Shown: in pieces, positions 4,142 through 21,890 of the stretch
Layout: each line of letters begins with the position of its first letter
Numbering within the stretch: position 1 is the first letter of the stretch
Virus record (IMG/VR): IMGVR_UViG_2531839180_000003
Span: 1-21,890 of that record
Reading direction: 5' to 3' (one strand)
DNA length: 21,890 bases
From: a virus
Lineage: Duplodnaviria > Heunggongvirae > Uroviricota > Caudoviricetes
The notes under the pieces: model-generated
Seen by the model: the letters and a program-made list of their open reading frames with translations, nothing else
Databases searched by the model: none
What the model was told of the DNA's origin: nothing
Made by a program: the position numbers and the translations under genes

Positions 4142-4163
4142 CGACAACAGAGGGGACATTCCA

Positions 4164-4406: not shown

Positions 4407-4414
4407 AATAATAA

Positions 4415-4443
4415 AGGCCTGGTAAAATCCAGGCCATTTTTTT
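4415..4443. terminator. bidirectional rho-independent terminator between convergent genes
   Basis: Stem AGGCCTGG (4415-4422) / CCAGGCCA (4429-4436), loop TAAAAT, then a T-run to 4443. The upstream A-run gives a U-tract on the opposite strand. Confidence 0.7.
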
Positions 4444-4948: not shown

Positions 4949-5234
4949 GATGCGTCCTTTGTTGTAGTCAGAGACAGCAATAATAGGCCATGGTTTACTT
5001 CTTTTGTAAATTATTTGTTCGTGTTCTTTCGTGGTTGTTCGGTCTGACTGACAGGTGTTTACATACTGATTTTTATGTATATGTTGGAGCGTGGCACTCA
5101 GACGTGAGCCGCCACAATGCCGCCTGACCCCCTGCGCGATGCCGGGTTGATCTGCGAGATGCCGAGAGTGTCGGGCGGCGCTCCCCCCGTGTTGGTTTCA
5201 CGTCCTGAATCTTAACCAATACGAGAAAACCTTC

Positions 5235-6404: not shown

Positions 6405-6416
6405 TCATGAGTAAGG

Positions 6417-6438
6417 AGGAGGCTGCGGCCTCCTTTTT
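6417..6438 (+). terminator. intrinsic terminator or attenuator immediately after the major capsid gene
   Basis: Stem AGGAGGC (6417-6423) / GCCTCCT (6428-6434), loop TGCG, then TTTT (6435-6438), 13 nt after the capsid stop codon. Confidence 0.55.
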
Positions 6439-6458
6439 CAGCTTTATGGAGTACACCG

Positions 6459-7019
6459 ATGAAAAACACCGATTTTGAAATCCGCACATCTGAACTGACC
6501 GCCAGCAATAAAAAGCTGGTGGGGTATGCCGTTCGCTGGAACAGCCTTTCAGAAATTATCTGGGACGAATTCCGCGAACAGTTCACGCCGGGGGCTTTTG
6601 CTGACTATCTGGCGACGGGTAATGATGTGCGCTGCCTGTATGAGCATGACTATACCCAACTGCTGGGGCGCACCAAATCCGGCACTCTGGTACTGACTGA
6701 GGATAACACCGGGTTACGTTTTGAACTGACACCGCCGGATACCCAGCTTGGAAAAGATGTGCTTACGCTGGTGGAGCGTGGCGACATTACAGGAATGAGC
6801 TTTGGTTTTCGCGCATTATGCGAGGAGTGGAGTATCGCGCAAAAACCGTATCTGCGTACCGTAACCGCCGCTGAACTCCGTGAAATCACAATAACGTCGA
6901 TGCCTGCTTATCCAGAATCTGGCGTGGAGATTGCCCACCGTTCGTTGTTTGCACAGCACCCTGAATTACGTCCGACAGGAAATAATCGTCATCGCTGGTC
7001 TGAGCTGGCGGGGTTGTGA
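6459..7019 (+). CDS. HK97-family prohead protease
   Basis: 186 aa with GGAG Shine-Dalgarno. Motifs such as GMSFGF and the overall pattern fit the prohead serine protease (S78) family. Position is adjacent to capsid and portal. Confidence 0.8.
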   Translation: MKNTDFEIRTSELTASNKKLVGYAVRWNSLSEIIWDEFREQFTPGAFADYLATGNDVRCLYEHDYTQLLGRTKSGTLVLTEDNTGLRFELTPPDTQLGKDVLTLVERGDITGMSFGFRALCEEWSIAQKPYLRTVTAAELREITITSMPAYPESGVEIAHRSLFAQHPELRPTGNNRHRWSELAGL

Positions 7020-7020
7020 T

Positions 7021-8235
7021 ATGTGGTGGCCTTTTAGTCGTAAAAAAAGCGAGCAGCGTAACCTGTCCATTGATGATTTTCTGGCGCTGTCCGGCGTACC
7101 GAATACCGGATCCGGAGAATATGTTTCTGCTGGGACGGCTGAATCATTGCCTGCAGTGATGAATGCGGTTTCTGTCATCGCTGAGGCGGTGGCCACGATG
7201 CCGTGTTATCTGTATCTGGTACGTAATGACAAGGGCAGGGAGGCGCGGGAATGGCTGGACAGTCACCCGGTAGATATTCTGCTGAATGAGCAGCCTAATT
7301 CGTGCCAGACACCTTACCAGTTTAAACGCACAATGATGCGTCACTGCCTGCTGAACGGTAACGCCTATGCGGTTATTGAGTGGGGGCAGGACGGGCAGCC
7401 AAAATCACTTCATCCTTATGCGCCGAGGTGTGTTGTACCGGAACGCACAGGCGCACACAAATACCGCTATACCATCACCGAACCCTGTACAGGAACGGTG
7501 CGCACGTATTTACAGGAAGAAGTTTTGCATCTCCGCTATGCCTCGGATGATGGCTTTCTGGGGCGTTCCCCCGTCACGATTTGCCGTGAGGCGCTGGGGC
7601 TTGGCCTTGCTCAACAGCGTCACGGAGCCAGCATTATGAAAGATGGCATGATGGCGGCAGGGATTATCACGTCAGGCGAATGGCTGGACGGCGTGAAAGG
7701 TAAACAGGCATTGGATGCTCTGGAACGCTACAAGGGGGCGAAAAATGCCGGAAAAACGCCAATCCTTGAAGGGGGCATGGATTACAGGCAACTGGGAATG
7801 AGTAACCAGGATGCGGAATGGCTGGCCTCCCGTCGCTTCTCCATTGAAGACATCGCCCGCATGTTCAACGTATCGCCTATTTTTCTGCAGGAATACAGCA
7901 ACAGCACCTACAGCAATTTCAGCGAGGCAAGCCGCGCGTTTCTGACCATGACAATGCGCCCGTGGCTGGCGAACTTCGAACAGCAAATCAAGGCCGCTTT
8001 GCTGGTGGCTTCTCCCGTACCTGGTACCCGTTATCTGGTTGAGTTTGATTCAGCCGATTTATTACGCGCCACACCCACCGAACGTTATGCCACGTATGAG
8101 AAAGGGATTAAGAACGGGATCATGAATCCGAACGAAGCCCGTGAGCGTGAGGGTATGCCGCCGCGTGAAGGTGGTGATGAGTTCAGCCAGGCATGGAAAC
8201 AGACTGTGGAAATTAAAGGGAGAAAAGATGAGTGA
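7021..8235 (+). CDS. HK97-family portal protein
   Basis: 404 aa from the ATG at 7021, directly after the protease stop (track ORF extends to 6931). Portal-like C-terminal region ...NPNEAREREGMPP. Confidence 0.85.
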   Translation: MWWPFSRKKSEQRNLSIDDFLALSGVPNTGSGEYVSAGTAESLPAVMNAVSVIAEAVATMPCYLYLVRNDKGREAREWLDSHPVDILLNEQPNSCQTPYQFKRTMMRHCLLNGNAYAVIEWGQDGQPKSLHPYAPRCVVPERTGAHKYRYTITEPCTGTVRTYLQEEVLHLRYASDDGFLGRSPVTICREALGLGLAQQRHGASIMKDGMMAAGIITSGEWLDGVKGKQALDALERYKGAKNAGKTPILEGGMDYRQLGMSNQDAEWLASRRFSIEDIARMFNVSPIFLQEYSNSTYSNFSEASRAFLTMTMRPWLANFEQQIKAALLVASPVPGTRYLVEFDSADLLRATPTERYATYEKGIKNGIMNPNEAREREGMPPREGGDEFSQAWKQTVEIKGRKDE

Positions 8236-8530
8236 AGCCAGAATTACACCTGATGAAGTCAGGGCACATCTTCGACTTGATGATGATTTATCCGGTGAAG
8301 GCGAACTTCTGAAAATGTATACCGATGCGGCGCTGGAAGCCTGCCAGAAGCATATCGGGAAACGTTTTGAAGACGGGCTGGAATTTACCCCGGCAATGCG
8401 TGTTGGTTGCCTGATGTACATCGCTTTCCTGTACGAGAACCGGGAAGCGGTTTCACCAGTGGAGCACTCGGAACTGCCTATGGCTATTTCTGCGCTCTGG
8501 TCAGTTTATCGTGACGTAGGGGTGTACTGA
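8228..8530 (+). CDS. gp6-like head-tail connector (head completion) protein
   Basis: 100 aa from the ATG at 8228, overlapping the portal stop as ATGAGTGA, with AGGGAG Shine-Dalgarno. Pattern RAHLRLDDD...AALEA...FLYENRE is typical of phage gp6-like connectors. Confidence 0.7.
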   Translation: MSEARITPDEVRAHLRLDDDLSGEGELLKMYTDAALEACQKHIGKRFEDGLEFTPAMRVGCLMYIAFLYENREAVSPVEHSELPMAISALWSVYRDVGVY

Positions 8531-8970
8531 TGCCGTGGCAACCATTAAGGCGATGCACTGAGCCTGGCTGTAATAAGCGCGTGAAGTCCGGCAAGTGTGA
8601 AGAGCACAGGCGGGCTGCATGGCGTGCAGAGGATGCCAGACGGGGACACCGCCGCGCGCGCGGGTATTCCCGACAGTGGGACAAATACCGCGCCCTGTAC
8701 CTGAGCAAAAACCCGTTATGCGTGCGTTGTCTGGCTAAGGGGATTTATACGCCAGCTCTTGTGGTGGATCACATCATTCCCATCAATGGCGGCGGTGATG
8801 TTCTCTTCTGGCCTGAGTGGAATCACCAGGCATTGTGCCAGACGTGCCACAACCGTAAGACGACACGAGAAGATCCAGCCACGAAAGCAAACCGTAAAGC
8901 GGGCATGTATCGCGAGCAGGAAGAACGGGCGGCACACCGTAACGACTGGATGTATGGCGATGATGACTGA
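8530..8970 (+). CDS. phage-associated HNH endonuclease
   Basis: 146 aa. Cys pairs (CTEPGC, CVRC, CQTCHNRK) and VDHIIP...N...H fit an HNH zinc-binding nuclease. Start overlaps the connector stop as TGATG. Lies upstream of terS as in HK97-type cos phages. Confidence 0.85.
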   Translation: MPWQPLRRCTEPGCNKRVKSGKCEEHRRAAWRAEDARRGHRRARGYSRQWDKYRALYLSKNPLCVRCLAKGIYTPALVVDHIIPINGGGDVLFWPEWNHQALCQTCHNRKTTREDPATKANRKAGMYREQEERAAHRNDWMYGDDD

Positions 8971-9258
8971 ACAGGAGCAAACCAGGCTGATACGTGGACT
9001 GATAAGGCAGCGTGACACATGGAAGACACAGGAGACAGAGCACAAAGCCAACAGGACTGGGCGCACAAAACGCACCACAGCGAAGCGATTAACCGACCGT
9101 GACCGCGAGGTCATGGAATGTTTTCGCAATCGCTGGTGAGGCCGTCAGAGGGGGTGGGGGTGGTTTTCAGGACGAAACCGTCCCTGCCGGACACCGACCG
9201 CCCCCTCAAATTTTTGTGCACGGTAATTTTTTTGAAAATAATTGGGCGAAAAAAGAAC

Positions 9259-9615
9259 ATGGCAAGACCACCAAAAGCCCCCGCTTACCTGGATGAAATC
9301 GCGGTCAGGCAGTGGAAGGAAAAATCGCGCCAGCTTTCCGGGCGGGAAGACCTTACCCCCGCCGACTGGAGCAATCTGGAACTGTATTGCGTTAACTACT
9401 CTATATACCGCAAAGCCGTCGAAGACCTTGCGACGCGCGGGTTCAGCATTGTTAACAGTCAGGGCAGCGAGAGCAGAAACCCCGCACTGAGCGCAAAGGC
9501 TGACGCAGAAAGAATAATGATCAAAATGGCTTCTTTGCTGGGTTTTGACCCGGTAAGCCGTCGCAGAAATCCACCGGAAACAGAGGAAGAGGACGAACTT
9601 GACCGCCTGGCATGA
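9259..9615 (+). CDS. terS: terminase small subunit (P27-family-like)
   Basis: 118 aa from the ATG at 9259; the track ORF from 9118 has a low-complexity N-terminal extension that is probably non-coding. MARPPKAP...LDE...W...LELYC pattern and position directly upstream of terL. Confidence 0.7.
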   Translation: MARPPKAPAYLDEIAVRQWKEKSRQLSGREDLTPADWSNLELYCVNYSIYRKAVEDLATRGFSIVNSQGSESRNPALSAKADAERIMIKMASLLGFDPVSRRRNPPETEEEDELDRLA

Positions 9616-11260
9616 GTACGCAGAAGGCGTAAAAAACGGCAAAATTACGGCCTGTAAACGACTGAAACAGGCTGTTAAACGGTATTTTTCTGACCTTGAA
9701 AACTCCCTTTACACGTTCGATCCGGAGGTCGTGGAGCGGTTTATTGCCTTTTCCCGGGTGTGCCCGCACGTAAAAGGCGCAATGCGCGGTAGCCCCATTG
9801 AACTTGAGCCGTGGCAGCAGTTCGCCTTTGCCTGCATCCTGGGATTTAAGGTTAAGGCCACCGGACGGCGCAAATACACCAGCGCATTCATTGAAGTACC
9901 GCGAAAAAATGCCAAATCCACGGTCGCCGCTATCCTGGCTAACTGGTTTCTGGTTATGGAAAACGGGCAGCAGGATATTTACACCGCCGCCGTGAGTCGT
10001 GATCAGGCGCGGATCGTGTTTGATGATGCGCGTCAGATGTGCCTTTTATCCCGACCGTTACGAAAGCGGGTAAATATTCAGGCGCACAAGGTGATACACC
10101 CGAAAACCAACAGCCTGTTAAAGCCACTGGCAGCAAAAGCGGCAACCATTGAGGGGACAAACCCGAGTCTTGCCATTGTGGATGAATATCACCTGCACCC
10201 AGACAACGGGGTTTATTCCGCACTTGAACTGGGGATGGGGGCGCGTCCGGAGGGGCTGTTATTTGCCATCACCACATCGGGGAGCAACGTTGTTTCAGCC
10301 TGTAAACAACACTACGACTATTGCTGCCAGATACTGGATGGTGAAGAGGTGAACGAATCCATGTTCGTACTGATTTACGAGCTGGATGATGAAAGCGAGG
10401 TTGACGATCCGGCGATGTGGATAAAGGCGAATCCCAATATCGATGTTTCCGTCGATCGTGAAAAACTGGCCTCAACCATCCAGAAAGCGCGGGGTATTCC
10501 GTCGCAGTGGGTGGAAATGCTCACCAAGCGATTCAATATCTGGTGTCAGGGGGCTACGCCGTGGATGGGTAACGGTGCATGGGCGGAGTGCGCCGGAACG
10601 TTCGCTGAGGCGGATTTATACGGGCAGGAGTGCTATGCGGGGCTGGACTTATCATCAACCAGCGATATTTCCAGCGTGTGCTATGCCTTTCCGGTCGGTA
10701 AAAAGATTATGCTGGTTTCACGTCACTATCTACCGGAATTTCAGCTACAGAACCCTGCCAATAAAAACCGCGCCATCTATCGCCAGTGGGCAAAGGCGGG
10801 CTGGATACGCACAACACCGGGTGACTGCATTGATTATGACCGTATCCGTGATGACATCATGGCGGATGCAGAGAATTTCAATATCAGGCTGGTGGGTTTC
10901 GATACATGGAACGCCACGCACCTGAGGACGCAGCTACAGGGAGCGGGATTTGAGGTGGAGCCGTTCCCGCAAACGTACCTTCGTTTTAGTCCGGCGGCGA
11001 AATCGTTCGAAGTTTTTGTTAACCGGAAGGTGATTGTTCATCGTGGTGATCCGGTGCTGGCCTGGTCAATGAGTAATGTTGTGATGCAGAGTGACGCGAA
11101 CGCCAATATCAAGCCGAACAAGAAAAAATCATCCAATAAGATAGACCCGAGCGTTGCGGCGCTGATGGCGTTTGGCACATTCCAGGCTGAGCATGAGGAA
11201 TTTGCATTTGATATGAGCGACAGCCAGAAAGAGCGACTTGCGGCATTTGATGGGGTATGA
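9599..11260 (+). CDS. terL: terminase large subunit
   Basis: 553 aa from a TTG start at 9599, preceded by GAGGAAGAGGA, overlapping terS by 17 nt. ATPase N-terminal domain and nuclease C-terminal domain pattern typical of Terminase_1-type large subunits. Confidence 0.9.
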   Translation: MTAWHEYAEGVKNGKITACKRLKQAVKRYFSDLENSLYTFDPEVVERFIAFSRVCPHVKGAMRGSPIELEPWQQFAFACILGFKVKATGRRKYTSAFIEVPRKNAKSTVAAILANWFLVMENGQQDIYTAAVSRDQARIVFDDARQMCLLSRPLRKRVNIQAHKVIHPKTNSLLKPLAAKAATIEGTNPSLAIVDEYHLHPDNGVYSALELGMGARPEGLLFAITTSGSNVVSACKQHYDYCCQILDGEEVNESMFVLIYELDDESEVDDPAMWIKANPNIDVSVDREKLASTIQKARGIPSQWVEMLTKRFNIWCQGATPWMGNGAWAECAGTFAEADLYGQECYAGLDLSSTSDISSVCYAFPVGKKIMLVSRHYLPEFQLQNPANKNRAIYRQWAKAGWIRTTPGDCIDYDRIRDDIMADAENFNIRLVGFDTWNATHLRTQLQGAGFEVEPFPQTYLRFSPAAKSFEVFVNRKVIVHRGDPVLAWSMSNVVMQSDANANIKPNKKKSSNKIDPSVAALMAFGTFQAEHEEFAFDMSDSQKERLAAFDGV

Positions 11261-11265
11261 CGAGA

Positions 11266-11547
11266 ATGACTGAAACTGATCTACTAAAAATAATTCGCCG
11301 CATTACCGGAATCAGTCAGCAGCCTGACGAACAGGCTACACAGCCGGACAGCGTGATAGCCGAAAATTACGCGCGTGTGGTGGCTGAGGTAATGCGCCGT
11401 GACGGTATTGAGCTTAACGGCGTGGATATGCGCAACATACGAACCAGAGTTCTTGAGTTGCTGGCATACCGTCGCCGTTCTCAACAACGGAGGGAGAGCG
11501 CGAAAAATACTTACCAGTGGAGGAAGCCGGAGCACTTACGGCGGTAA
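11266..11547 (+). CDS. hypothetical protein
   Basis: 93 aa from the second in-frame ATG just after the terL stop. No recognisable motif. Confidence 0.4.
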   Translation: MTETDLLKIIRRITGISQQPDEQATQPDSVIAENYARVVAEVMRRDGIELNGVDMRNIRTRVLELLAYRRRSQQRRESAKNTYQWRKPEHLRR

Positions 11548-11564
11548 CTGGTTGATATTACCGA

Positions 11565-11773
11565 AAGTGCAAAAATGCACTTAGCAACTGGTGGCGAGTT
11601 GCAGATCTGCAACTCGACTATGAAACTACCCGTAGTTTGGGTAGTAAGAGTAACACCCAGATTTTGGGGCTTACTCGCGATACCCAAATAAAGGGTATCG
11701 GTGTAAGAAATATCGTTTCTCATATGTGAGCACCGAGGGCGGAATTCCGCCTTCGGTTACTTATTGTGCTCAT
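11565..11773. repeat. array of five inverted repeats including a 22-bp perfect palindrome
   Basis: Hairpin AAGTGCA/TGCACTT (11565-11582). Perfect palindrome CGAGTTGCAGATCTGCAACTCG (11595-11616). CTACCC/GGGTAG (11627-11644). CGATACCC/GGGTATCG (11678-11700). Nested hairpin 11726-11773 with core CCGAGGGCGG-AATT-CCGCCTTCGG (11733-11756). Confidence 0.6.
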
Positions 11774-12152
11774 GCACAGGGAGGGGCGGGTCAAATCTCT
11801 GTACCCTGACGTCTTCCGGACTGCCAGCCCCATCGATTTTTTATACCCGCGAAAAATGAAAAACGCTTCACGCTGGTGGGCCTGATGCCGATATGGTGAG
11901 CCACATACCGGAAATATCCACCAGCACGGCAACGGCAGAATAGCCACAACACAGAAAACCCACGAATATGGGGTTTTTGTTATGGCATGGTCATGATGAC
12001 CGCCCCTGCTCTGAATGGTGGAAATCACCACGCAGATCATCCACCAGCTTCATGACGGATAGCCGGAAAATGATAACGGTTACGCAAAACCCCCAGCAAA
12101 TTTCCCTTTTGTTTGTTATTGTTCGTCGTTGTTCGTAGAGCTTCAACGAAAT

Positions 12153-12176
12153 GTGTGGTCAGTTGTGTGGTCAGTT
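12153..12176. repeat. tandem direct repeat TGTGTGGTCAGT x2 upstream of int
   Basis: Exact 12-mer at 12153-12164 and 12165-12176. Also GTTCGT x2 at 12121-12136. Located 190-250 bp upstream of the integrase start. Confidence 0.6.
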
Positions 12177-12368
12177 TTGAGGCTTTTAATTTATGCATTC
12201 TTAAAAACTTATTTATTATCAATTACTAACAGGAATTAGTAAGAAATACCCGTATTACCTGATCTGGATAATGCCAGCGTAGTCCTGGCGATTATTCAAG
12301 ATAAAATCAAAGACTTATCTGCGATTTTCGAACCGTTTTGTTTAGCCGATCACATCGAGGCTCACAAA

Positions 12369-13727
12369 ATGGGACACCAGACCATACGCCACACCATTAA
12401 ACGTAACGGGGTTTATTACGTTCGTTTCCGCCTGCCTGATAATAAGTTTTTCCGTAAGTCGTTAGAGACTGACAGCCACACCCAGGCGCAGTTGCTCATG
12501 TCTTTTGCTTCTCCTGTAATTCCTCTGGTTCAACGTGGAGCTATCCAACCGGATCACTTCGGTAAGCGTCTTTCTGAGTATGGCAATAGTCTGAAGCAGC
12601 AGAATGAACAATGGCTGGCGCACCAATTTCTGAATGATGCGCGGCGCAATATTCAGCCGATAGTTGTTCATGAAGACCGCGAGGTTGTCTCTCCTTCGGT
12701 AGATGAGGAAGAACAAACTGAAGCACAACCAGAACACGTGTTAACACTGGCTGGCGCGTGGAATATGTATAAAGAGGAGAAAGCCCAAAACTGGACGAAG
12801 GCTATCTCTCAAGCCAATGAGCGCTTTATGGAGGTGATGTTGATTGTCTTGGGTTCATCAACTGATGTAACCACGATTACCAAGCAAGACATTAAACAGG
12901 TAATGGAGGTTGTTGAAAACTTGCCTAAGCGTGTTGTGCAGCCTTATCGGTCAATGACGGTTCAGCAACTGATCGAGTGTGATGATGTTCCGCCAGAAGA
13001 TTTGGTTGGCGCTGAGTCTATCCACAAGCATTTGAAGATTTACAAATCGCTGTTTAAAACCTTCCTGACAGACAATAAAGATATTCTGGAGAAGTCTCCG
13101 ACTGATGGGATCGTCGCCGCACCGTCGAAAACGAGGTTTGGAGCATACAGTGCAGCAGAAATGAGAAAGTTTGTGGGGTGGGCGCTCAGGCAGCCTGACG
13201 GTTGGCAGAAGTGGATCACTCTTTTGTTGGCGTACACGGGAGCCAGAAGAGGCGAGATCGCAAAGCTGGAAAAATCTCATATCAAATATGATGAGGATAG
13301 TCAGCGGCACTATCTCCTTATCGCGGAAGGAGGACAGGGGAAAACTGAGAACGCGACTAGACAGGTTGTAATACATCCCAAACTGATCGAATGGGGATTC
13401 CTTGATTTTGTAAACCGCCAATGGAAAGAGAAAATATTCTCGCCTGTGTCGGGTAAGAACATGCCGAAGATCGGCAAAGTTTTAGCAGATGTGCGTGATC
13501 AGCTTGGTATTCCTTATCTTGATGACTATGGGCAGCGGCGATTGGTGCATAGCTTCCGACATACCATGATTTCAACCTGTTTAGCTGGCTGGGTTGGCAA
13601 CTTAGCGCACTTGCAGCAGGTTGTAGGGCATGAGAAAAGCGGGGCAGGGATCACTAGAAGATACTTACACATTTTTCCTCTGAAAACTGTGTGTTACGTC
13701 ATTGATGGATTGTGTTGGAATGGCTAA
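12369..13727 (+). CDS. int: tyrosine recombinase (phage integrase family)
   Basis: 452 aa with GAGG Shine-Dalgarno. Catalytic signature elements TGARRGE (Arg I), HSFRHT (HxxR box II) and GHEKSGAGITRRYLH (His...Tyr). Confidence 0.85.
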   Translation: MGHQTIRHTIKRNGVYYVRFRLPDNKFFRKSLETDSHTQAQLLMSFASPVIPLVQRGAIQPDHFGKRLSEYGNSLKQQNEQWLAHQFLNDARRNIQPIVVHEDREVVSPSVDEEEQTEAQPEHVLTLAGAWNMYKEEKAQNWTKAISQANERFMEVMLIVLGSSTDVTTITKQDIKQVMEVVENLPKRVVQPYRSMTVQQLIECDDVPPEDLVGAESIHKHLKIYKSLFKTFLTDNKDILEKSPTDGIVAAPSKTRFGAYSAAEMRKFVGWALRQPDGWQKWITLLLAYTGARRGEIAKLEKSHIKYDEDSQRHYLLIAEGGQGKTENATRQVVIHPKLIEWGFLDFVNRQWKEKIFSPVSGKNMPKIGKVLADVRDQLGIPYLDDYGQRRLVHSFRHTMISTCLAGWVGNLAHLQQVVGHEKSGAGITRRYLHIFPLKTVCYVIDGLCWNG

Positions 13728-13837
13728 TAATTTGGGTGATGTCATAGTTTTACTGAATTTTCAGTGATATAAATCATGTAAAAATAAGGTGTTCTACGTA
13801 AGGCTATTTTTCTATACACAGCTAGCATAAAGGATTA

Positions 13838-15286
13838 ATGATGTTTATTAAAAAACTGAAGATAGAAAATTTTAAAGGGTATCACGGGGAAGATAATGAG
13901 TTGGAATTCAATATCCCTGATGGAGAAACGGAAGGTAGTGGACTTAATATATTTGTGGGTGAAAACAACGCCGGAAAATCCACTGTATTTGAAATTATAG
14001 ATTTTATAAAGGATGGAACCAAAAAGAACATTGAGGATCTTATATGCAAATCAGACCCGGCTAATATTGCTGAGAAGCTTTCAGCCGAGCTAACCTTCAC
14101 TGGAAACTTATCAGAAGTAATTGCCGCTCATGTACAAGCTAATAAAGTTGCAGCATTCACCTCGCATGTTTTTGAGGACGAGGGTGTTAATTATTTCAGA
14201 GTGAAGAGGTGTAGTGAGGTAGGGGAGAAGAAAATATTATTTTGGAACGGAAATGAATTTGTTAACCCAAGTGGTATAGATGCCCCATTTAAGAAGTTTT
14301 ATGATAATAACTTCATTTGGGCTGATACAAACCCAAGCAATGAAGCAAAGTTTGGCTCTACAACTATATGTGGTTCGCTTCTAAAAGAAATTGCTTTAGG
14401 CCATATTGAAACGGATGAGTATAGAGCGTTTTCTGAGCAATATCATCGCGTATTCAATCATCCTGAATCTGAGTTGAGACAAAAAATATCATTAGTCGAA
14501 GATCAAGTTAGAACAGTTTTTTCATCTCAATTTGGCATGGCAGATATTTCTTTCATTTTTGAGGAGTTGCAGGTAGAGAATTTCTTCAAAACTATTTCCA
14601 TCATGATTGATGATGGGGTGAATGTCCCAATGGGCGAAAAGGGGCATGGAATGCAAAGGGCACTAGCCCTATCATTACTTCAGGTGTATGCTGACATAAC
14701 GTGTAATGCGCATGGCGCTGGGATTAGCAAACCATTTTATCTTTTCATTGATGAACCTGAAATATGTCTTCATCCATCAGGCCAGCAGAAGCTTTTAGAA
14801 GCTTTAATGATTATCTCCAAAAGCAGACAGGTTTTTGTCACAACGCATTCGCCTTTCCTTTTATCTTCCCCTTATCTTAAAAATGTTGGCTTGTTTGTTT
14901 TCAAAAAAGAAAATAATAAGAATGTTGTGGAGAGAGCTGATACTTCTCCATGGTTCCCTTGGTCTCCATCGTGGGGGGAGATTAATTTCAAAGCATACAA
15001 TTTAGCAACCGTTGAATTGCATAATGAATTATATGGTTATTTGCAGGAAAAAAACTCCTGTCCGAGCGAAAAAGCAATGGAACAATGGCTAAATTCAAAT
15101 GGAATTGCATTTGATAAAGTATGGGTTAGAGAATTTAAAGGTGCAGCACAACCGCCAGCGGATACTACATTACAAACATTCATCCGTAATCACATACACC
15201 ACCCAGAGAATGTTACAATGCAATCTAATCGCTATACACAACAAGAATTACTAACTTCAATCCAACAAATGGTTGGTCTTCTATAA
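13838..15286 (+). CDS. ABC-type ATPase of the OLD/AAA_15-like class with unassigned ~140-aa C-terminal domain
   Basis: 482 aa. N-terminus KKLKIENFKGY, Walker A GENNAGKST, signature-like GHGMQRALALSL, Walker B/D-loop LFIDEPEICLHP, H-loop VTTHSP. No Toprim-like acidic motifs seen in the C-terminus, which contains RNHIHH (about residues 450-455). Visibly AT-rich. Own upstream intergenic region and own terminator. Confidence 0.8.
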   Translation: MMFIKKLKIENFKGYHGEDNELEFNIPDGETEGSGLNIFVGENNAGKSTVFEIIDFIKDGTKKNIEDLICKSDPANIAEKLSAELTFTGNLSEVIAAHVQANKVAAFTSHVFEDEGVNYFRVKRCSEVGEKKILFWNGNEFVNPSGIDAPFKKFYDNNFIWADTNPSNEAKFGSTTICGSLLKEIALGHIETDEYRAFSEQYHRVFNHPESELRQKISLVEDQVRTVFSSQFGMADISFIFEELQVENFFKTISIMIDDGVNVPMGEKGHGMQRALALSLLQVYADITCNAHGAGISKPFYLFIDEPEICLHPSGQQKLLEALMIISKSRQVFVTTHSPFLLSSPYLKNVGLFVFKKENNKNVVERADTSPWFPWSPSWGEINFKAYNLATVELHNELYGYLQEKNSCPSEKAMEQWLNSNGIAFDKVWVREFKGAAQPPADTTLQTFIRNHIHHPENVTMQSNRYTQQELLTSIQQMVGLL

Positions 15287-15291
15287 AGAAA

Positions 15292-15320
15292 AAGGCGAGC
15301 CCTTTGGCTCGCCTTTTAAT
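15292..15320. terminator. bidirectional rho-independent terminator between convergent genes
   Basis: Stem AAGGCGAGCC (15292-15301) / GGCTCGCCTT (15306-15315), loop CTTT, then TTTTAAT. The upstream A-run gives a U-tract for the minus strand. Confidence 0.75.
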
Positions 15321-15321
15321 A

Positions 15322-15513
15322 TTAATTTAATAACTTGCGCTTTTTAGATAATAGCACACTTAAAGCATATTCAAACCCGTGTTGCGCCTCTAGACGGCAT
15401 AGGGTGATATTACAGATCCCCAACTCCTTACACAGCGCCTTTCGGTTAATTACCTCCGCCGCGCCAGATACATAGACTTGACCAGCGCCGGGGATATTGA
15501 TTGAAACTTTCAT
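15322..15513 (-). CDS. hypothetical small protein, possibly a truncated head-module gene
   Basis: 63-aa ORF with GAGGT Shine-Dalgarno. Lies directly downstream of the E-like capsid gene and abuts the terminator and the AT-rich int/ATPase segment. Confidence 0.4.
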   Translation of the reverse strand: MKVSINIPGAGQVYVSGAAEVINRKALCKELGICNITLCRLEAQHGFEYALSVLLSKKRKLLN

Positions 15514-15603
15514 GTGTTACCTCAGTGTAAAAGTAAAAATGAATATAACCGGAAGATATAACCCCCAGCCGTACCGGAAGGGCGCGACCGGGGGAAATGT
15601 GCA

Positions 15604-16632
15604 TTACTTCAGCGTGATAGTTGTAAGCCACTGAGGACGAAGCAGAAGAGGCAACAGAGAAAACTCTGACTGCATTTTAATCATCCCGTCATCGTCTACG
15701 CTGGTCCAGGCGTAGCGATCCTTAACGCCCCCCTTGACGGCCAGGCTTTGATTTCTGCTGCATGGCCCTGAAATTTTGCGCAAAAATGAATAATCGGAGT
15801 CGGTCATACGTGGGACAACCAGACCGGAGTTCTCACTCACCTTGTAAGTAGGGTCACCAGCCAGATCGACAAAGGTTACAGGACCCAGCGACATGGTATT
15901 AAAACCACTAAGCGCGTTAGGGATAACCACGCCGGAGATCTGCGCCTGCTGGACGCTGTGCAGAATAAATGCTTGGATCTCTTTGTTGGTGGCAATGACA
16001 TCATAGAGACCAGAATCACACAGGACATACAGACGGTCGCTATAGTTGCGGGCCGCGCCTAGCGCCTGGGAAACCTGGCGACGCAGTTTAGCAAGCTGTT
16101 GGTAAATAGAGGCATCCACGGAAGCATCCAGGGTGAAGGAAGCCGGGGAGGTCCCGAACACCTGATCGAAGGAGATGTCGCCGTCATCGGTATGGGGTGC
16201 GCTCACCTTACGCTCAAAGAGGGCCTCCGCCAGAGAAGTTTCCACAGTTCGGCGATAATCCTTTTCGAACTGTACAGCACGCTTGCTGATAACTTCAGTT
16301 ATTGCCATATCCTGATTAGTTGTTGGACTGATCAGCCCCTGCCAATCATGCGGGCGCACAAAGGCAGTCTCATGTACGACTGGGATCTCGGCATCACGGA
16401 AAACAGCGGTCGCCGCTTTCTGGTGGTTGGTGTCGGTGCCGTAGCGCGACACGGTTTCCAGTTTGGAATCTTCCGCATCAGTAATATCACTCACACGGGC
16501 ATTAGGGACGCTAGAGGAGCCTTTAGCGAACAGGTTCAAATCCTGAAGCAGGTAAGAGCCTTGTTTAGAATCCTTGATAGTTGCTACAAGGTCGAGCCCC
16601 TCATAGGTATTTTTAATATCTTTAACGCTCAT
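15604..16632 (-). CDS. major capsid protein, lambda gpE family
   Basis: 342 aa with GGAGG Shine-Dalgarno. C-terminal ...DRYAWTSVDDDGMIKMQSEFSLLPLL aligns by eye with lambda gpE ...ARYPKNWVTTGDPAREFTMIQSAPLMLL. Length matches gpE (~341 aa). Confidence 0.8.
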   Translation of the reverse strand: MSVKDIKNTYEGLDLVATIKDSKQGSYLLQDLNLFAKGSSSVPNARVSDITDAEDSKLETVSRYGTDTNHQKAATAVFRDAEIPVVHETAFVRPHDWQGLISPTTNQDMAITEVISKRAVQFEKDYRRTVETSLAEALFERKVSAPHTDDGDISFDQVFGTSPASFTLDASVDASIYQQLAKLRRQVSQALGAARNYSDRLYVLCDSGLYDVIATNKEIQAFILHSVQQAQISGVVIPNALSGFNTMSLGPVTFVDLAGDPTYKVSENSGLVVPRMTDSDYSFLRKISGPCSRNQSLAVKGGVKDRYAWTSVDDDGMIKMQSEFSLLPLLLRPQWLTTITLK

Positions 16633-16634
16633 TA

Positions 16635-16994
16635 TTAAGCCTCCATGCTGTTGTTATTGCCAATACGAATAGAACCATCTGCCGTTAGTCGCTTGATTGC
16701 TTCTTTCAGGGAGGCGGCATCTTTGGCGCGGAGGTTGAACGTGTTCATATATGCCAATCTGTCAACCACAACGATTGTCTTATTGTCGCCTGCGGAGACA
16801 TCTACCAGACAGATCAGAGGGGAGCCCTCGACAGCCTGATCGAACAATTCGTAGGTTTCAGCATTGAATACATCGCCACAGAATAGATCCGCTGGGACAG
16901 TGGCCCCTTTGATCTCGGTGCGGGAGAAGAGGTCGGAGGCGCTGTTAACCAGCACATCTGACATTCGTTTAGGGAACGACTCAGAAGTACGCAT
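16635..16994 (-). CDS. putative head decoration protein (lambda gpD-like position)
   Basis: 119 aa from the internal ATG at 16994 with AAGGAAA Shine-Dalgarno; the track N-terminal extension is low complexity. Sits immediately upstream of the gpE-like gene with a 2-nt gap. Similarity to gpD itself is not evident by eye. Confidence 0.45.
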   Translation of the reverse strand: MRTSESFPKRMSDVLVNSASDLFSRTEIKGATVPADLFCGDVFNAETYELFDQAVEGSPLICLVDVSAGDNKTIVVVDRLAYMNTFNLRAKDAASLKEAIKRLTADGSIRIGNNNSMEA

Positions 16995-18300
16995 AAAGGT
17001 TTTCCTTATGGAGGGTTTTAGACGTGGAGAGAGTCCACAGGGTGATCCGGTGCAACGCCGGATATAAGGACCGCCACAGAGGACAATCCGAATGATTGGA
17101 AGATGGGAGGCCGTGGATTGAATAGAAGAGGGCGGCATCATGCCGCCCTTTCTAATCTGGCTCTCTCTCACCCTCGCAGGGTGGGGGGAGGTGTAAACCT
17201 CTTTTTAGTGGTCACTCACCCGCCAGCGTCACGGGAGCAACCGCCAGCCAATGGGCAAATAACCACAAAAAAGAACCCGGAAGGAGACACCGGGATGAAG
17301 GCAATGTAACTTACTGTCTGATCACTTGTTTTCCTGTGTAGCCTCAGAGCCTTACATTATTTGCTTTCATGGTTCAGCAAAGAAGCCACAGAGGAAAACG
17401 GACGCCTGAAATACGCCCGGAAACCATCGAAGAAAATCAATAGTTTATCGTTGCAACTGGGGAACCACCCCGGCCCAACTGTGGACCCCGTGGAGGGTCG
17501 CTACAATCGAGGAGATCGCTTGTATTCTGAAGGGCCGCAGTTAGCGACGCTTTAGAATAGGGTCTGTGGCGCAAGCCCTATGATTAGAGGCGTTTTGAAT
17601 CATAGGAGTGTCATCAACTGGCGGAACTTGAGGAGTGGACCGCACACAAAGCATTCTGGCAAGTGGAGTTGAAAGAACGCTTTGGGTGAGGGCCGGGGCG
17701 GGGGAGAAGTCCGCCCGGCTCACTCAGTACAGACCCACAGGGGCTGGCTAAAGCACATGTTAATGAAAGTTCTGTACAGGTGTGAGGCGGTAAGCTGCAA
17801 AACGGCGATTTCGACATCCTCACCACATCACACACCATGAATACTATGTTATCACAAATGAGAATTATTATCAACAAGTATTAATTGCATTCCTCTTTTA
17901 TTTGTGGTCTTGCGTGGCTTCCCCACATATTGGGAAGAGAGGCAAATCAATTTTTATTAACTGGCGGGTAGGTTGTGGGTTTACATGTTGGCACTTTTGA
18001 CAACAAACCATGTAGCCCAAAAGGCACACAAGAGTATATAACTACATAAAACCTCGCTACGCTCGCCCTCCGGGCTACGGTTTTATTGATCTTATATTAT
18101 AACTTCATTCAATAACTAATTGTTTACACAATTAATTATTTCATTCGTTATAATGTGTTCTTGAAACCTTCCCGCCCTTCCGGGCTTACCAGGTTTTAGG
18201 CCGTTGGCCTGTTTTCCACAGTGTGGAGGCTCGCCTGTGTGGCTCACTCCAGGCAGGGACCCCGGAAATATTTTCCGGCCTGGGGTGTATCAATTTGAAA

Positions 18301-18346
18301 CAGGGGGGTGTGTCAGAATGACACAGGGGTGTGTCAAAATGGCACA
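18301..18346. repeat. tandem pair of dyad-symmetric sites (operator or iteron candidate)
   Basis: CAGGGGGGTGTGTCAGAATGACAC (18301-18324) and CAGGGGTGTGTCAAAATGGCACAC (18325-18346). Each contains GTGTCA-N3-TGACAC-like dyad symmetry. Flanking direct repeat ATAAGACTAA at 18349-18358 and 18374-18383. Confidence 0.55.
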
Positions 18347-18761
18347 CAATAAGACTAATTATAAAACTAACCCATAAGACTAACACCCAGGGCCAGGTCA
18401 AGACCTTTAAGGGAGTGTTGGGAAATCGTAGATTGATTGGTAAGAGACTGATCTCTTTAAGCGTCCTACAGACGCGCCTCTTTGGCAGCGCTCGCACCAG
18501 CGAGCAAGACCCCTTTGGAACACCGCACGATGTAAGGTGACCTCTGGGCGGCGGGGTGGCGGGCCCCCGGCCCGGTACACAGTGCCGCACAGCGTACAGA
18601 ACCACAAGCAGCAGAAGCCCCTAAACGCGCCGCTGTGGCGCTCTCTCATACGTAGAAAAGGAAACACCCTATAAACGCCCTCCGGCGCTCTGAGAGCCTT
18701 ACAGGGGGGCTGTGCATTTAGCACAATAAACAACCGAATGCAAGCGAATGCAAAAATATTC

Positions 18762-18864: not shown

Positions 18865-19290
18865 ATGAGTATTTACCTTGATGTTGAAAAAATGGTTGAA
18901 CGTATCGATCAGCGTGATTTGAGTCGTTCAACTCTTCAGGGACAACGTAGCCGATTCAAAGCCGCCGGGCGTACCGCTGAAGTGGAAGCAATCGGCAAGG
19001 CTCTGGAGATGACCAAATCCAGCGCCTCCGGCGTCCTCCGCCAGTCTCAGCGCCTTGCCACCAAAATTACAGAGATGGACGCAGAGAAAGCATTAGAGCT
19101 TAAAGCAACCGTTGCGCTGTTCGCTTCCAAGTCTACGGATCTGCAAGCCTCTATTGTGCTGGCTTTCCAATCCTTCTTTGAGGTTAAAGGTGTAACCCTG
19201 GACCACGATGAGGTGATGGCCCTGTTAATGTTGAAAGCATCAGCGGATTTTGAGGACATGACAGGCGAGCTACCAATTATTGTACATTAA
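18865..19290 (+). CDS. hypothetical protein
   Basis: 141-aa ORF with GGAGA Shine-Dalgarno. First gene downstream of the promoter at 18762-18790. Confidence 0.5.
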   Translation: MSIYLDVEKMVERIDQRDLSRSTLQGQRSRFKAAGRTAEVEAIGKALEMTKSSASGVLRQSQRLATKITEMDAEKALELKATVALFASKSTDLQASIVLAFQSFFEVKGVTLDHDEVMALLMLKASADFEDMTGELPIIVH

Positions 19291-19317
19291 TCAGTAACTT
19301 AATTTGGGAGGGTAACA

Positions 19318-19578
19318 ATGAATCACGTTTATACAGACTTGTCGGAATCCCGCCTGTTGTCTGGATATGCAAGCCAGATTGTGGAAGCTATCCAAAATGA
19401 TGAGTCTGCCCCGCACCTTTACGACGACATCCGCGAAATGCTCCAGCAGGTTAGCCCCTCTGGCATGATTACCATCGGTAACCCGGGAATTGTCGCCCCG
19501 GCGTCATGGTGGGGTGATTGGTTCGGCCTGGACCTCAGTGCTGAGGACATCGCAGAACTACAGGAGGTTGAATTATGA
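19318..19578 (+). CDS. hypothetical protein
   Basis: 86-aa ORF with a strong GGGAGGG Shine-Dalgarno. Stop overlaps the next start as ATGA. Confidence 0.5.
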   Translation: MNHVYTDLSESRLLSGYASQIVEAIQNDESAPHLYDDIREMLQQVSPSGMITIGNPGIVAPASWWGDWFGLDLSAEDIAELQEVEL

Positions 19579-19880
19579 ACGGTCTAACTATCCCGTTTGA
19601 ACATTTCCAGACCAACAAGATCGCCGGGGTAAATTTCACTGCTGTGATGAAACTGGTTTATTTCTTTCTTGATGCCAATAAGAACCAAGACGGCGTTATT
19701 CATATTTCCCAAACGGATCTTGCCGATATGGTCGGTGTCACTCGCGCAACAATAGGGAAGGTGATTAATAGTCTAAAAGAAATGGGCTTGTTGGTGAAAT
19801 CTGAACAGGTAGCGGGCAATGACATCCTGAATTACAAGACATTGCCTATTCGTCAATATGGGCGTGGTTACAGCAAATAA
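19575..19880 (+). CDS. winged-helix DNA-binding protein (paralog of 20044..20700)
   Basis: 101 aa with GGAGG Shine-Dalgarno. HTH-like segment ISQTDLADMVGVTRATIGKVINSLKEMGLL. Aligns with the N-terminal half of the 20044 product (shared FT..MK..Y, G.I, R.T, EMGL..K.EQV.G..LNY). Confidence 0.55.
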   Translation: MNGLTIPFEHFQTNKIAGVNFTAVMKLVYFFLDANKNQDGVIHISQTDLADMVGVTRATIGKVINSLKEMGLLVKSEQVAGNDILNYKTLPIRQYGRGYSK

Positions 19881-19889
19881 GGGGGTTTT

Positions 19890-20060
19890 ATGAAAATCGA
19901 CTTCCCGAAAGAACAAGCCGATCAGTTATATGCACTGGTAAGGGCGGGCGGTGGCGCTCCCCATACCATCGTTAAACAGGCGTTAGCCGCCTACCTTGAA
20001 AACCACCCTCTTTTAGTCGCTTCCGCAGAAGGAAAACAGCAAGATGACCACAGCAAGTAA
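19890..20060 (+). CDS. small ribbon-helix-helix-like protein (not in ORF track, under 60 aa)
   Basis: 56-aa ORF. ATG at 19890 preceded by AAGGGGG. MKIDFPKEQADQLYALV... has a strand-helix-helix pattern. Its 3' end overlaps the 20044 start. Confidence 0.4.
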   Translation: MKIDFPKEQADQLYALVRAGGGAPHTIVKQALAAYLENHPLLVASAEGKQQDDHSK

Positions 20061-20700
20061 CGGATTTGTAATGTTGGAAAATGGCCTCCTCAACCTGGGG
20101 AAGGTCGCCGGGAAAACTTTCACCGGGAACATGAAAATCACTTACAGCCTGATCCAAGGCTTTGAGAAAAACGGGCAGATCGCCTACTTCTCTCACTCGC
20201 ATCTTCAAACCCAGCTTGGAGCGAGCCGATCCACAGTGATCCGTATGTTGTCGGATATGGTGGAAATGGGCCTGATTAACAAAACCGAGCAGGTGAACGG
20301 CGGGACGCTGAATTACACAGTTAACCCGATCACCCCGGAAATGGTGGGAACCCCTGAAGCCGCCAAACCTGAAGCAACCAAACCAACCGCAGCACCCCAA
20401 CCCGTGGAGACCGTAGAGAATGCAGGAAGTAACCAGCCTGGAATTGTTAAGTGTGGATCTGACAGCGTACATAGAAGCCGCCCGGCGTCGCCTGGAGCTT
20501 CTCCTGTGGACCACAGCGGGGGCGCTGTTCGTCCCGCTCCTGTCCCTGTACCAGTAGAGCAGGGGGCCGCAAACGATGATTTACGCAACCTTGTTATTAA
20601 TTTTGTGGCTGGCTCTAATGTGTTGATGGTCAACGGCTTGCCTGTTGAATATTTGGAGCCAGAAGAAAGCGCCATTGATCAGTTTGGAGATGCCTTCTAA
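20044..20700 (+). CDS. winged-helix DNA-binding protein with Pro/Ala-rich linker and C-terminal domain
   Basis: 218 aa with GGAAA Shine-Dalgarno. N-terminal domain paralogous to 19575..19880. Low-complexity linker PEAAKPEATKPTAAPQP...PAPVPVPV. Confidence 0.55.
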   Translation: MTTASNGFVMLENGLLNLGKVAGKTFTGNMKITYSLIQGFEKNGQIAYFSHSHLQTQLGASRSTVIRMLSDMVEMGLINKTEQVNGGTLNYTVNPITPEMVGTPEAAKPEATKPTAAPQPVETVENAGSNQPGIVKCGSDSVHRSRPASPGASPVDHSGGAVRPAPVPVPVEQGAANDDLRNLVINFVAGSNVLMVNGLPVEYLEPEESAIDQFGDAF

Positions 20701-20777
20701 AAATCCTGAAATTGATTTCCCACAAATAACACTCTACACCAAACACCCGCCGTTTACAACCCTTTGGAGAGTCTCGC

Positions 20778-21344
20778 ATGAATAACTTTATCACTACTAA
20801 ATTCAACGCCTTAACCTCTGAAGAGGAAGCCGCAGTAAATGCACTGGCGGAGAAATTAGCAGCAAACAAGCCCCGTCGGATTATGGATGAGAGCCATTTA
20901 ACCCCGGATCAAATCCTGAAGATCAAGCGGGCCTGTATTCAGGGCCACAGCGCTAAAGCCATCATCGCGGCCTTTAACGTTTCGTTGGCCTATGTGCTGA
21001 GAGTAAAGCGCTCCCACAACCCTATGAAGTACCAGAAGACCCCGCTCACCTTGCCAGAAAAGGCAGTGTTGGCCCAGCAGATGGACGCCGATAATTTGAG
21101 CGTGGATAAAATGGCGGAACTTCTGGGGATCAACAGTAAGATGGTTTCCCTACTTCTTACCCAACCTTCACCCCGTTACCTGGTGGAGCAAATGCTCCCT
21201 TATGACCAAGTTTTACAGAACCTCCGCAGCGCCCGCTACGTGGAAAGCCCTGTATACAAAAAAGGGACGAGTATGCGCCGTGTGCGACTGATCGTTTCTG
21301 AAGCTCGTCAGCAGGCCCGCCAGGTAATCATTAAATCCCGGTAA
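20778..21344 (+). CDS. hypothetical protein with two HTH-like segments
   Basis: 188 aa with GGAGAG Shine-Dalgarno. HTH-like segments HSAKAIIAAFNVSLAYVLRV and LSVDKMAELLGINSKMVSLL. Confidence 0.5.
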   Translation: MNNFITTKFNALTSEEEAAVNALAEKLAANKPRRIMDESHLTPDQILKIKRACIQGHSAKAIIAAFNVSLAYVLRVKRSHNPMKYQKTPLTLPEKAVLAQQMDADNLSVDKMAELLGINSKMVSLLLTQPSPRYLVEQMLPYDQVLQNLRSARYVESPVYKKGTSMRRVRLIVSEARQQARQVIIKSR

Positions 21345-21346
21345 TT

Positions 21347-21529
21347 ATGTCCAACCCAACGGAATGGGACCTAAAGGATTACTTAGGTTCCAAACTGGTT
21401 AAGCGTCAGACAAGACTCTCTAACTTTCTCGCCTCCCTCCTCTATATCCCCTTTAAGCCCGCCTCCCTCTTCCTGTGGGGTGTGGTACTCACTTTACTTA
21501 TAAGGACTCTCTCAAATGCACCCCTTTGA
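21347..21529 (+). CDS. hypothetical small protein with hydrophobic C-terminal segment
   Basis: 60-aa ORF starting 2 nt after the previous stop. Weak Shine-Dalgarno. C-terminal LFLWGVVLTLLI stretch. Confidence 0.3.
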   Translation: MSNPTEWDLKDYLGSKLVKRQTRLSNFLASLLYIPFKPASLFLWGVVLTLLIRTLSNAPL

Positions 21530-21890
21530 ACTACTGAAACGCCAACTTGACGAAATGGCGAAATCCCGCCAGGTAGAGCAGGCCCAAGAGGAAGCCGCCG
21601 CCCGTGAACTCCGCAAGGCACAGGCCGATCTGTCACTGGATGAGGCTATCGCTCTGTACGTTACACAGTTGGAAGCCTCCACAGAGGCCGCAGACAGCGT
21701 CCAGAGGGGCCGCGCCATTAAGAGCCGGGGAATTGCTCTGTGTCACAAGGATCAGGGCTACAGCGCCAACGGTCGCCCGGTCTCTCTCCTGATCAAATCC
21801 GCAGACCTGCCAGCAGGTCACCGCCGGGTAATCATCAACAAGGCAGCAGGGCGCACCCTGAAGGCTATCAATCTAGAAGGGGCTGAATAA
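21516..21890 (+). CDS. hypothetical protein
   Basis: 124-aa ORF with AAGGA upstream. Stop codon is the last three bases of the window. Confidence 0.45.
   Translation: MHPFELLKRQLDEMAKSRQVEQAQEEAAARELRKAQADLSLDEAIALYVTQLEASTEAADSVQRGRAIKSRGIALCHKDQGYSANGRPVSLLIKSADLPAGHRRVIINKAAGRTLKAINLEGAE

Follow-up and report, generated by a model that had tools for sequence, protein, structure and literature searches.

A conserved capsid gene unit at the thiM riboswitch of Escherichia coli as part of a compact mobile island and possible satellite of large myophages

Two phage-type head genes that lie in a bacterial chromosome without neighbouring portal, terminase and tail genes raise a simple question: are they what is left of a prophage, or are they a part of another kind of element? 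The question is posed here by positions 15287-17000 of a 21,890-nt stretch of DNA (IMG/VR virus record IMGVR_UViG_2531839180_000003; the whole stretch is called the window below), where genes resembling the lambda D/E pair lie on the minus strand and are followed by a 63-aa open reading frame (ORF), a bidirectional terminator and a convergent, AT-rich ATPase gene. All of these had been named in the original prediction, which was made from the letters of the DNA, and all are present. That prediction explained them by the insertion of an integrase/ATPase segment near 15290-15420, which would have cut an older lambdoid prophage. We are confident of a different answer, namely that 15287-17000 belongs to a compact mobile element as an intact, conserved unit, rather than being left over from a truncated lambdoid prophage. 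For the element as a whole we favour, with a probability of roughly 0.55, a model in which it is a ~13.6-kb satellite dependent on a myophage of the Vequintavirinae/Certrevirus type.

The unit has the following parts.

15322-15513, minus strand: orf63, 63 aa, last gene of the capsid operon, conserved in every locus, without a family match
15604-16632, minus strand: major capsid protein, 342 aa, a distant member of Phage_cap_E (lambda gpE type)
16635-16994, minus strand: decoration-like protein of 119 aa; its gene has an AAGGAA ribosome-binding site and is coupled in translation to the capsid gene
15617-16980, minus strand: swapped two-gene capsid cassette, recognised by a mismatch between flank and protein identity

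Is this unit peculiar to the window, or is it found elsewhere? The capsid protein was traced into other genomes, and the proteins of the window were then mapped onto each locus. At least ten loci carry the orf63-capsid-decoration unit in intact form, and they represent seven enterobacterial genera, among them Escherichia, Kosakonia, Pantoea, Pluralibacter and Enterobacter. Carriers of the core include E. coli SCU-316, 90-1, H2 and EC24 and, beyond E. coli, Pantoea cypripedii, Pluralibacter gergoviae, an IMG/VR contig, two Kosakonia species and Enterobacter sp. EA-1, where it is decayed. The layout is shared. One strand holds orf63, the capsid gene and the decoration-like gene, followed by 1.8-2.2 kb free of ORFs; the other holds genes of ~141 and ~86 aa, a small helix-turn-helix or ribbon-helix-helix (HTH/RHH) protein, an HTH_36 replication-initiator-like protein and a ~188-aa DNA-binding protein, and ends with a PF26210 (Phage_phiTE_211) protein and a ~700-aa tape measure protein. 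The core is retained even at ~30% capsid identity, and in loci L016-L019, where it lies beside ydiI/ydiJ/ppsA, the capsid proteins are 31-41% identical to that of the window. In the relatives, the D/E-like pair and the small gene are thus seen as an intact conserved unit, which is the state of affairs that the original prediction had itself named as speaking against truncation.

Neither truncation nor relaxed selection was seen in the unit. All three genes are full length, and their ratios of nonsynonymous to synonymous substitution rates (dN/dS) indicate purifying selection: 0.06-0.15 (capsid gene), 0.08-0.10 (decoration-like gene) and 0.05-0.08 (orf63), or 0.05-0.15 overall. Whether the small ORF is the 5' part of a longer gene had been raised as a question; it proved to be a complete gene of 59-67 aa (33-97% identity), and in each of the loci it comes right after the capsid gene. 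It matches nothing in Pfam, PHROG, NCBIfam or PADLOC, and by eye it contains a helix-turn-helix-like motif, INRKALCKELGICNITLCRLEAQHG. The 90-nt spacer between the capsid stop and orf63 (15514-15603) carries overlapping minus-strand hairpins at 15580-15547, which may attenuate orf63 expression.

How far are the two larger genes really of the D/E kind? For the capsid gene, the E-like label stands in the sense of distant membership of Phage_cap_E. The window protein has no Pfam, PHROG, NCBIfam or PADLOC match, does not match PF03864 at E<=10 and has no BLASTP similarity to lambda gpE, and a tblastn search of 50,697 phage records with the capsid genes returned no match. PF03864 Phage_cap_E is matched by 10 of 11 aligned capsid relatives (best E 7e-13), and the SCU-316 allele reaches 1.8e-15, with 57.3 bits vs a curated cut-off of 22.9. 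Because only the relatives match PF03864, the membership of the window protein depends on transitivity within the family. Further, a profile of the capsid family aligns end to end with solved capsid proteins (9ncf at 9e-6, 9zbi at 6.5e-5 and phi92 gp124 at 1.5e-4) and likewise with the solved capsid protein 9c2d, the whole set spanning E 9e-6 to 8e-4. Against gp213 of phage phiTE, hhalign gave E 1e-4 over 310 columns with a probability of 56%, and the island protein is ~17% identical to it. Relatives at E<=1e-3 amount to 81 clusters among 1.84 billion representative proteins.

The D-like label draws on position, size and a weak profile match, and its support is weaker than that for the capsid gene. 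Its place in all loci is that of D, immediately ahead of the capsid gene, with 2 nt between it and the capsid start. The phrog_2680 profile ('head decoration') was matched by seven of eight decoration homologues at E 2e-4 to 4e-3, the window copy scoring 4e-3, and a weak similarity to phiTE gp212 covers 41 residues. No similarity to lambda gpD was found, nor any match in the PDB. The D-like gene is the 119-aa one with its AAGGAA site, and not a 178-aa ORF with a GTG start.

The pair also moves as a pair. The window and SCU-316 share 95-97% nucleotide identity up to 15617 and again from 16980, and between these points the capsid and decoration-like proteins are only 42-44% identical to the SCU-316 alleles and 83-93% identical to those of EC24/Kosakonia. 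The orf63 of EC24/Kosakonia is only 53-79% identical to that of the window. Since the flanks match SCU-316 and the proteins match EC24/Kosakonia, the capsid and decoration-like genes were exchanged as an exact two-gene cassette.

Where, then, does the element that carries the unit begin and end? The window represents the rcnR-thiM region of the E. coli chromosome and contains two mobile elements in tandem, one of which resembles a capsid-forming phage-inducible chromosomal island (cf-PICI). The attachment (att) site of the other lies in the thiamine pyrophosphate (TPP) riboswitch of thiM.

1-12184: cf-PICI-like element with D5-type primase, single-stranded DNA-binding protein (SSB), HK97 capsid (PF05065), prohead protease, portal, connector, HNH, TerS and TerL
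12242-12282, plus strand: att core (attL), 41 bp, a fragment of the thiM TPP riboswitch corresponding to TPP model positions 62-85
12369-13727, plus strand: tyrosine integrase of the island itself, 452 aa (PF00589 1.8e-5; phrog_1 3e-27)
13838-15286, plus strand: OLD/AAA_15-type ATPase, 482 aa, exchangeable cargo (AAA_15 1.5e-29; PADLOC Old 1.5e-45)
15290-15317, both strands: bidirectional intrinsic terminator with a 12-bp stem, seven GC pairs and T-runs on either strand

Positions 1-12282 are 100% identical to the cf-PICI-like element of E. coli 90-9280, which is unrelated to the island with the D/E-like genes. The island starts at 12242, and 12242-15617 shows 96.8% identity to the island of E. 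coli SCU-316 situated between rcnR and thiM. The 41-bp att core, for which attL and attR were aligned with the native site, recurs where the island ends in SCU-316 (L001 25571-25611), XJ34, DETEC-P829 and H8, and the att-to-att span in SCU-316 is 13.6 kb. Position 12242 is the true left boundary of the element carrying the head genes and lies ~3 kb upstream of the boundary originally proposed. The integrase, which had been taken for part of a segment inserted into an older prophage, is one end of this same att-bounded island. The absence of portal, terminase and tail genes, which had been put forward as a sign of truncation, holds within the island; it does not hold for the window, where the cf-PICI-like element has portal and terminase genes, nor for the relatives, in which a tape measure gene lies past the point where the window ends.

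The att site is a TPP riboswitch and not the tRNA site first looked for; tRNA/tmRNA and Rfam scans of the window and of its ORF-free region yielded nothing above threshold. The window might also have been one element in circular permutation, its integrase being that of the cf-PICI; this was rejected, as 1-12282 is 100% identical to a cf-PICI-like element that in 90-9280 is complete and has an integrase of its own. That element is flanked by a 78-bp direct repeat (12109-12184, equal to L003 3210-3287). One locus stacks two different capsid-encoding elements. At attR in SCU-316 and XJ34 (L001 25535-25631), the 5' half of the riboswitch is rebuilt from island-borne sequence and PGAP annotates a full riboswitch. 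The att copy beside the cf-PICI-like element (window 12206-12282, and likewise in 90-9280) is preceded by unrelated AT-rich sequence on its 5' side and carries no annotated riboswitch. Regulation of thiM may vary among island carriers.

If the integrase is native to the island, what is the junction near 15290? The integrase is 99% identical to the one at the same position in SCU-316; its PF00589 score of 25 bits lies under the Pfam gathering score of 27.1. Compared with E. coli XJ34, similarity ends at 13706 and returns at 15291, and XJ34 has three unrelated genes in between. E. coli H8 has the same integrase and ATPase without an adjacent capsid unit, and its similarity to the int-ATPase segment ends at 15313. 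Both endpoints fall within the terminator hairpin, so the breakpoint estimate of 15290-15420 was a good one. The variable interval is 13706-15291, and the elements of EC24, Pantoea and the ydiI site hold still other genes there. Given these endpoints, the interval from the integrase to orf63 is a cargo hotspot. The boundary at 15291-15313 is real and is the edge of this hotspot, a swap point for cargo, and within the int/ATPase segment only the ATPase is exchangeable.

The cargo of the window is a candidate anti-phage gene, judged by its domain matches. The PADLOC Old match covers protein residues 1-365 and model positions 1-352 of 578, and there are AriA/GajA-like matches too; in residues 366-482, domain searches did not find a Toprim nuclease domain. 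The thiM-adjacent island of E. coli B carries the defence gene EcoBLMcrX (PMC5487053). Most E. coli genomes that match the island, namely DETEC-P829 (L020) and ~900 others, keep only an integrase pseudogene and a 188-aa recombinase fragment at thiM, along with an insertion sequence (IS) element and a second copy of the TPP riboswitch; these are widespread decayed islands.

With these limits drawn, the reading of the D/E-like genes as the rest of an older lambdoid prophage, cut by an int/ATPase insertion near 15290-15420, is effectively excluded. It would account for the real similarity break at 15291-15313, for the foreign base composition of the ATPase gene (GC 0.37-0.40 vs 0.49-0.55 in the capsid genes) and for the decayed remnants that most E. 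coli genomes hold at the site. Yet the pair and the 63-aa gene are intact in at least ten loci and always have the same non-lambdoid neighbours, the 63-aa ORF is full length everywhere, dN/dS is 0.05-0.15, and the integrase and capsid genes share one att-bounded island. Nor is there BLASTP similarity to lambda gpE or gpD or a phage-record match for the capsid gene. Remnants of lambdoid neighbours (portal, protease/scaffold, FI/FII or tail genes) were found neither in the island nor in any related locus. Nor are the capsid genes lambdoid, and the other phage-related parts of the island point to Vequintavirinae myophages.

What kind of element is the island? Portal, terminase and sheath homologues were absent from every related locus by Pfam listings and protein mapping, and the only structural genes of the island are g124 and those for the capsid, decoration-like and tape measure proteins. 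The island has integration, regulation and replication modules of its own and does not have a full set of virion genes, a general feature that it shares with phage satellites. Its right-hand part, read on the other strand, is as follows.

18865-21529, plus strand: rightward operon of g141, g86, a 101-aa HTH protein, a 218-aa HTH_36/replication-initiator-like protein, a 188-aa DNA-binding protein and g60
21516-21890, plus strand: g124, 124 aa, PF26210 (Phage_phiTE_211) family

The synteny of this operon is kept in all loci. Three features of the island lead towards a particular group of phages. First, g124 shares 74% identity over its residues 62-95 with the N-terminus (residues 6-39) of phiTE gp211, and the rest of g124 is unrelated. 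The gp211 gene of phiTE lies between the portal gene and the decoration and capsid genes gp212/gp213, which is the usual scaffold/protease position, and phiTE shares the order of gp211, decoration and capsid genes with the island. The 34-aa motif is matched by 226 phage records, and the matches listed are mostly Vequintavirinae-type myophages of ~140-150 kb. From this resemblance, g124 may be a case of molecular mimicry of a helper assembly motif. Second, in the relatives a tape measure gene starts exactly at the window end, directly after g124. That of SCU-316 matches TMP_3 at 3e-26 and phrog_5255 at 2e-103, and the best phage matches of the protein are Certrevirus phages (CR3, CR8, CR9, phiTE and others) at ~39% identity over 517 residues. 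The phiTE virion has a T=13 shell of the HK97 fold with a trimeric beta-tulip decoration protein (PMC11972413), and this shell follows the same two-protein scheme as lambda D/E.

The third feature lies in the ORF-free region between the two operons, 1.87 kb long in the window. Across seven elements this region keeps 70-95% nucleotide identity, though the capsid proteins are 42% identical. In the middle of the region, promoter-like sites face outward.

16995-17890, minus strand: ORF-free leader of the capsid operon, ~850 nt, more conserved than the proteins
17874-17846, minus strand: promoter-like site
17419-17399 and 17149-17129, minus strand: terminator-like hairpins within the leader, on the transcribed strand
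18006-18154, plus strand: non-coding block of ~150 nt common to the divergent intergenic region of Certrevirus, with a sigma-70-like promoter toward the regulator operon

In the 150-nt block, identity is 86% with phage CR9 and 77% with phiTE, and KaOmega and others share the block as well; its sigma-70-like promoter-like site is at 18125-18154. Taken together, the tape measure protein, the 34-aa motif and this block point to Certrevirus/Vequintavirinae myophages as the putative helpers of the island. Within the block, a hairpin of the form AAAACC...GCCC-TCC-GGGC...GGTTTT is followed by an AT-rich promoter-like stretch.

The leader is probably a structured RNA of ~850 nt with long hairpins and compensatory changes. 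In its consensus structure 90% of cells are paired, compared with 44-46% in slid controls, and 55 pairs are changed on both sides, as against 20.4+-3.4 in shuffles and 12-19 in slid controls, with the caveat that the structure was derived from the very sequences that were scored for pair changes. The Rfam scan of the leader and the ORF-free region gave no family match.

Tandem 21-nt repeats at 18300-18349 and 17986-18031 contain the near-palindromes TGTGTCAGAATGACACA and TGTGTCAAAATGGCACACA, and similar half-sites, GGCACACA, occur inside the phage-shared 150-nt block. The repeats look like operators for a dimeric DNA-binding protein. An element of ~100 nt at 18468-18566 is 85-87% conserved even in the most distant relatives (L016, L018, L004) and is reversed relative to the capsid gene in L018 and L019; RNAalifold found no consensus structure in it.

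From these observations, the following course of events can be proposed. A large virulent myophage of the Vequintavirinae/Certrevirus type would be the helper of the element. On helper infection, the capsid operon would be read from the promoter near 17860, and the transcript would pass through the 850-nt structured, terminator-containing leader, which probably gates capsid expression. The capsid and decoration proteins of the element itself would form a small shell fitting its ~13-kb genome, and portal, terminase, neck and tail would come from the helper. Through its copy of the motif at the N-terminus of the helper's scaffold/protease-position protein, g124 may join the satellite shell to helper parts, and the tape measure homologue may either enter helper tails or disturb them. 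Genomes packaged in the small capsids of P4, the Staphylococcus aureus pathogenicity islands (SaPIs) and the phage-inducible chromosomal island-like elements (PLEs) are close to 13.6 kb. By analogy, the att-to-att size of the island suits a small capsid of that kind. We infer helper dependence and small-capsid formation, as well as what the leader, g124, orf63 and the tape measure protein do.

Several points weigh against such a satellite. The element is known here from sequence, with excision, replication and packaging inferred, and a single IMG/VR contig with the core does not prove encapsidation. AlphaFold2 models were too poor for a fold search, with a predicted local distance difference test (pLDDT) score of 37 for the capsid protein (11-sequence alignment) and 41 for the decoration-like protein (10 close sequences), and because both are unusable the assignment of the two folds relies on sequence profiles. 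No portal, terminase or packaging-specificity gene was recognised in the island, and helper parts would have to join a shell that is only ~17% identical to the helper capsid protein. The phages with the 150-nt block are all Certrevirus members that infect Cronobacter, Pectobacterium, Enterobacter and Klebsiella, and no coliphage is among them. We know of no precedent for a tape measure protein encoded by a satellite. Further, the element is rare, its right-hand part being present in 13 of 5,426 complete E. coli genomes, and many copies are decayed (XJ34, EA-1, Kosakonia arachidis and ~900 genomes with an integrase remnant only). A pattern-based scan of 185,579 species genomes found three loci, a figure to be read as a floor and not as a census.

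The same structural genes could instead serve to harm a phage. The island might be domesticated and non-transmissible, its structural homologues acting as dominant-negative poisons or decoys against Vequintavirinae assembly while the island itself stays unpackaged. The structural genes are partial mimics of helper parts, the island has an additional defence-type ATPase at a known defence locus and no recognisable packaging gene, and tail-assembly interference is already known as a strategy (PMC11364771). We consider this unlikely. At least four recombinases, seven genera and several sites argue for horizontal spread, a replication-initiator-like gene and long conserved cis-regions have been kept, and a capsid protein 17% identical to that of the helper makes co-assembly unlikely. 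Interference and satellite transfer are also not mutually exclusive, as P4, PLE and the SaPIs illustrate.

The rarity of the element and its pseudogenised or deleted copies bring up another possibility, a reduced lineage of defective prophages descended from a small temperate phage, maintained by its integrase and passed on mainly vertically or by general transduction while its phage-like genes slowly decay. At least four unrelated recombinases serve the core, at three or more insertion sites.

thiM riboswitch: 452-aa tyrosine integrase
tRNA-Gly: 399-aa integrase
Pantoea: 559-aa integrase
Beside ydiI/ydiJ, one element: large serine recombinase
Next to yciO and the trp operon: the Pluralibacter core

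The same genes, the same order and the 1.9-kb non-coding region are thus found behind unrelated recombinases in distant genera, a pattern unlike independent decay. Strong purifying selection, the exact exchange of the capsid pair as a cassette and the compensatory base-pair changes in the leader likewise oppose slow decay, and we hold a defective prophage lineage to be quite improbable.

A second, collinear variant of the element was observed in E. coli H8 (L021 16747-25309) and Pantoea (L004 13071-20118). Its order is regulators, a DUF6945 protein, a PF26210 protein, a tape-measure-like gene in some cases, a decoration-like gene, the capsid gene and a small ORF. The capsid protein of the variant is 22-24% identical to that of the window, and the variant can adjoin the first type in tandem.

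The satellite model remains the one that we prefer. Its extension to a new family of Enterobacterales satellites, with its own capsid and decoration genes, a copy of a helper motif, a tape measure gene and a gating leader RNA, and without portal and terminase, is more tentative, and we put it slightly short of even odds. The toolkit of such a satellite would be without precedent, and the exchangeable capsid cassette and the defence-cargo hotspot next to the integrase would belong to it. No description of satellites of Certrevirus, rV5 or Vequintavirinae phages, or of satellites with capsid and tape measure genes, was found in the literature, the coverage of which was incomplete, so that a prior description is possible.

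If the island is a satellite, the biology of Enterobacterales satellites would extend to large virulent myophage helpers, including phages of the rV5, phiTE and CR3 types that are under consideration for therapy and biocontrol. There are two known routes to a small capsid, the remodelling of a helper coat (P4, SaPI, PLE) and a full head module (cf-PICI); a coat of the satellite's own combined with borrowed portal and packaging parts would be a third. The satellite tape measure protein and the large structured leader RNA would be new devices of control or interference. For annotation, calls of 'major capsid protein' or 'tape measure protein' at such loci should not be taken for prophage remnants, and the thiM riboswitch locus can carry tandem stacks of different satellites plus defence cargo.

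How does the island compare with known systems? Like the cf-PICIs, it is a small integrative island of a similar size class with a major capsid protein of its own instead of a remodelled helper capsid, and in the window the two occupy the same chromosomal locus in tandem. The head and packaging set of the cf-PICIs is complete, with a capsid protein of HK97 type (PF05065), prohead protease, portal, connector, HNH, TerS and TerL. The island and its relatives lack all of these; what they have is a capsid gene of the Phage_cap_E type together with decoration-like and tape measure genes and 1.9 kb of non-coding DNA. The PLE of Vibrio cholerae, a satellite of phage ICP1, is similar in that the apparent helper is a large virulent myophage and the genome fits a small capsid. 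PLE is reported to take the ICP1 coat protein and to resize it by means of an external scaffold, TcaP (PMC10945586). The island, in contrast, encodes its own coat and decoration proteins and has no gene in common with PLE, and helper dependence is demonstrated for PLE and proposed for the island.

The P4-like satellites share with the island a terminal integrase, a variable hotspot with defence-type cargo and a genome of ~11-14 kb, and a further possible likeness is RNA-based control through a transcribed leader, which in P4 is the P4 CI RNA. P4 relies on the capsid protein of P2, together with Sid and Psu, and carries an alpha primase; the island is without any P4 marker genes and has capsid, decoration-like and tape measure genes instead. 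With the lambda D/E pair, finally, the island shares a small decoration-type gene directly before a ~340-aa capsid gene of the Phage_cap_E family, with similar protein sizes, whereas its proteins have no pairwise similarity to gpD or gpE and no lambdoid neighbours or remnants. The gp212/gp213 pair of the Certrevirus phiTE is a nearer structural analogue of the island pair than lambda D/E.

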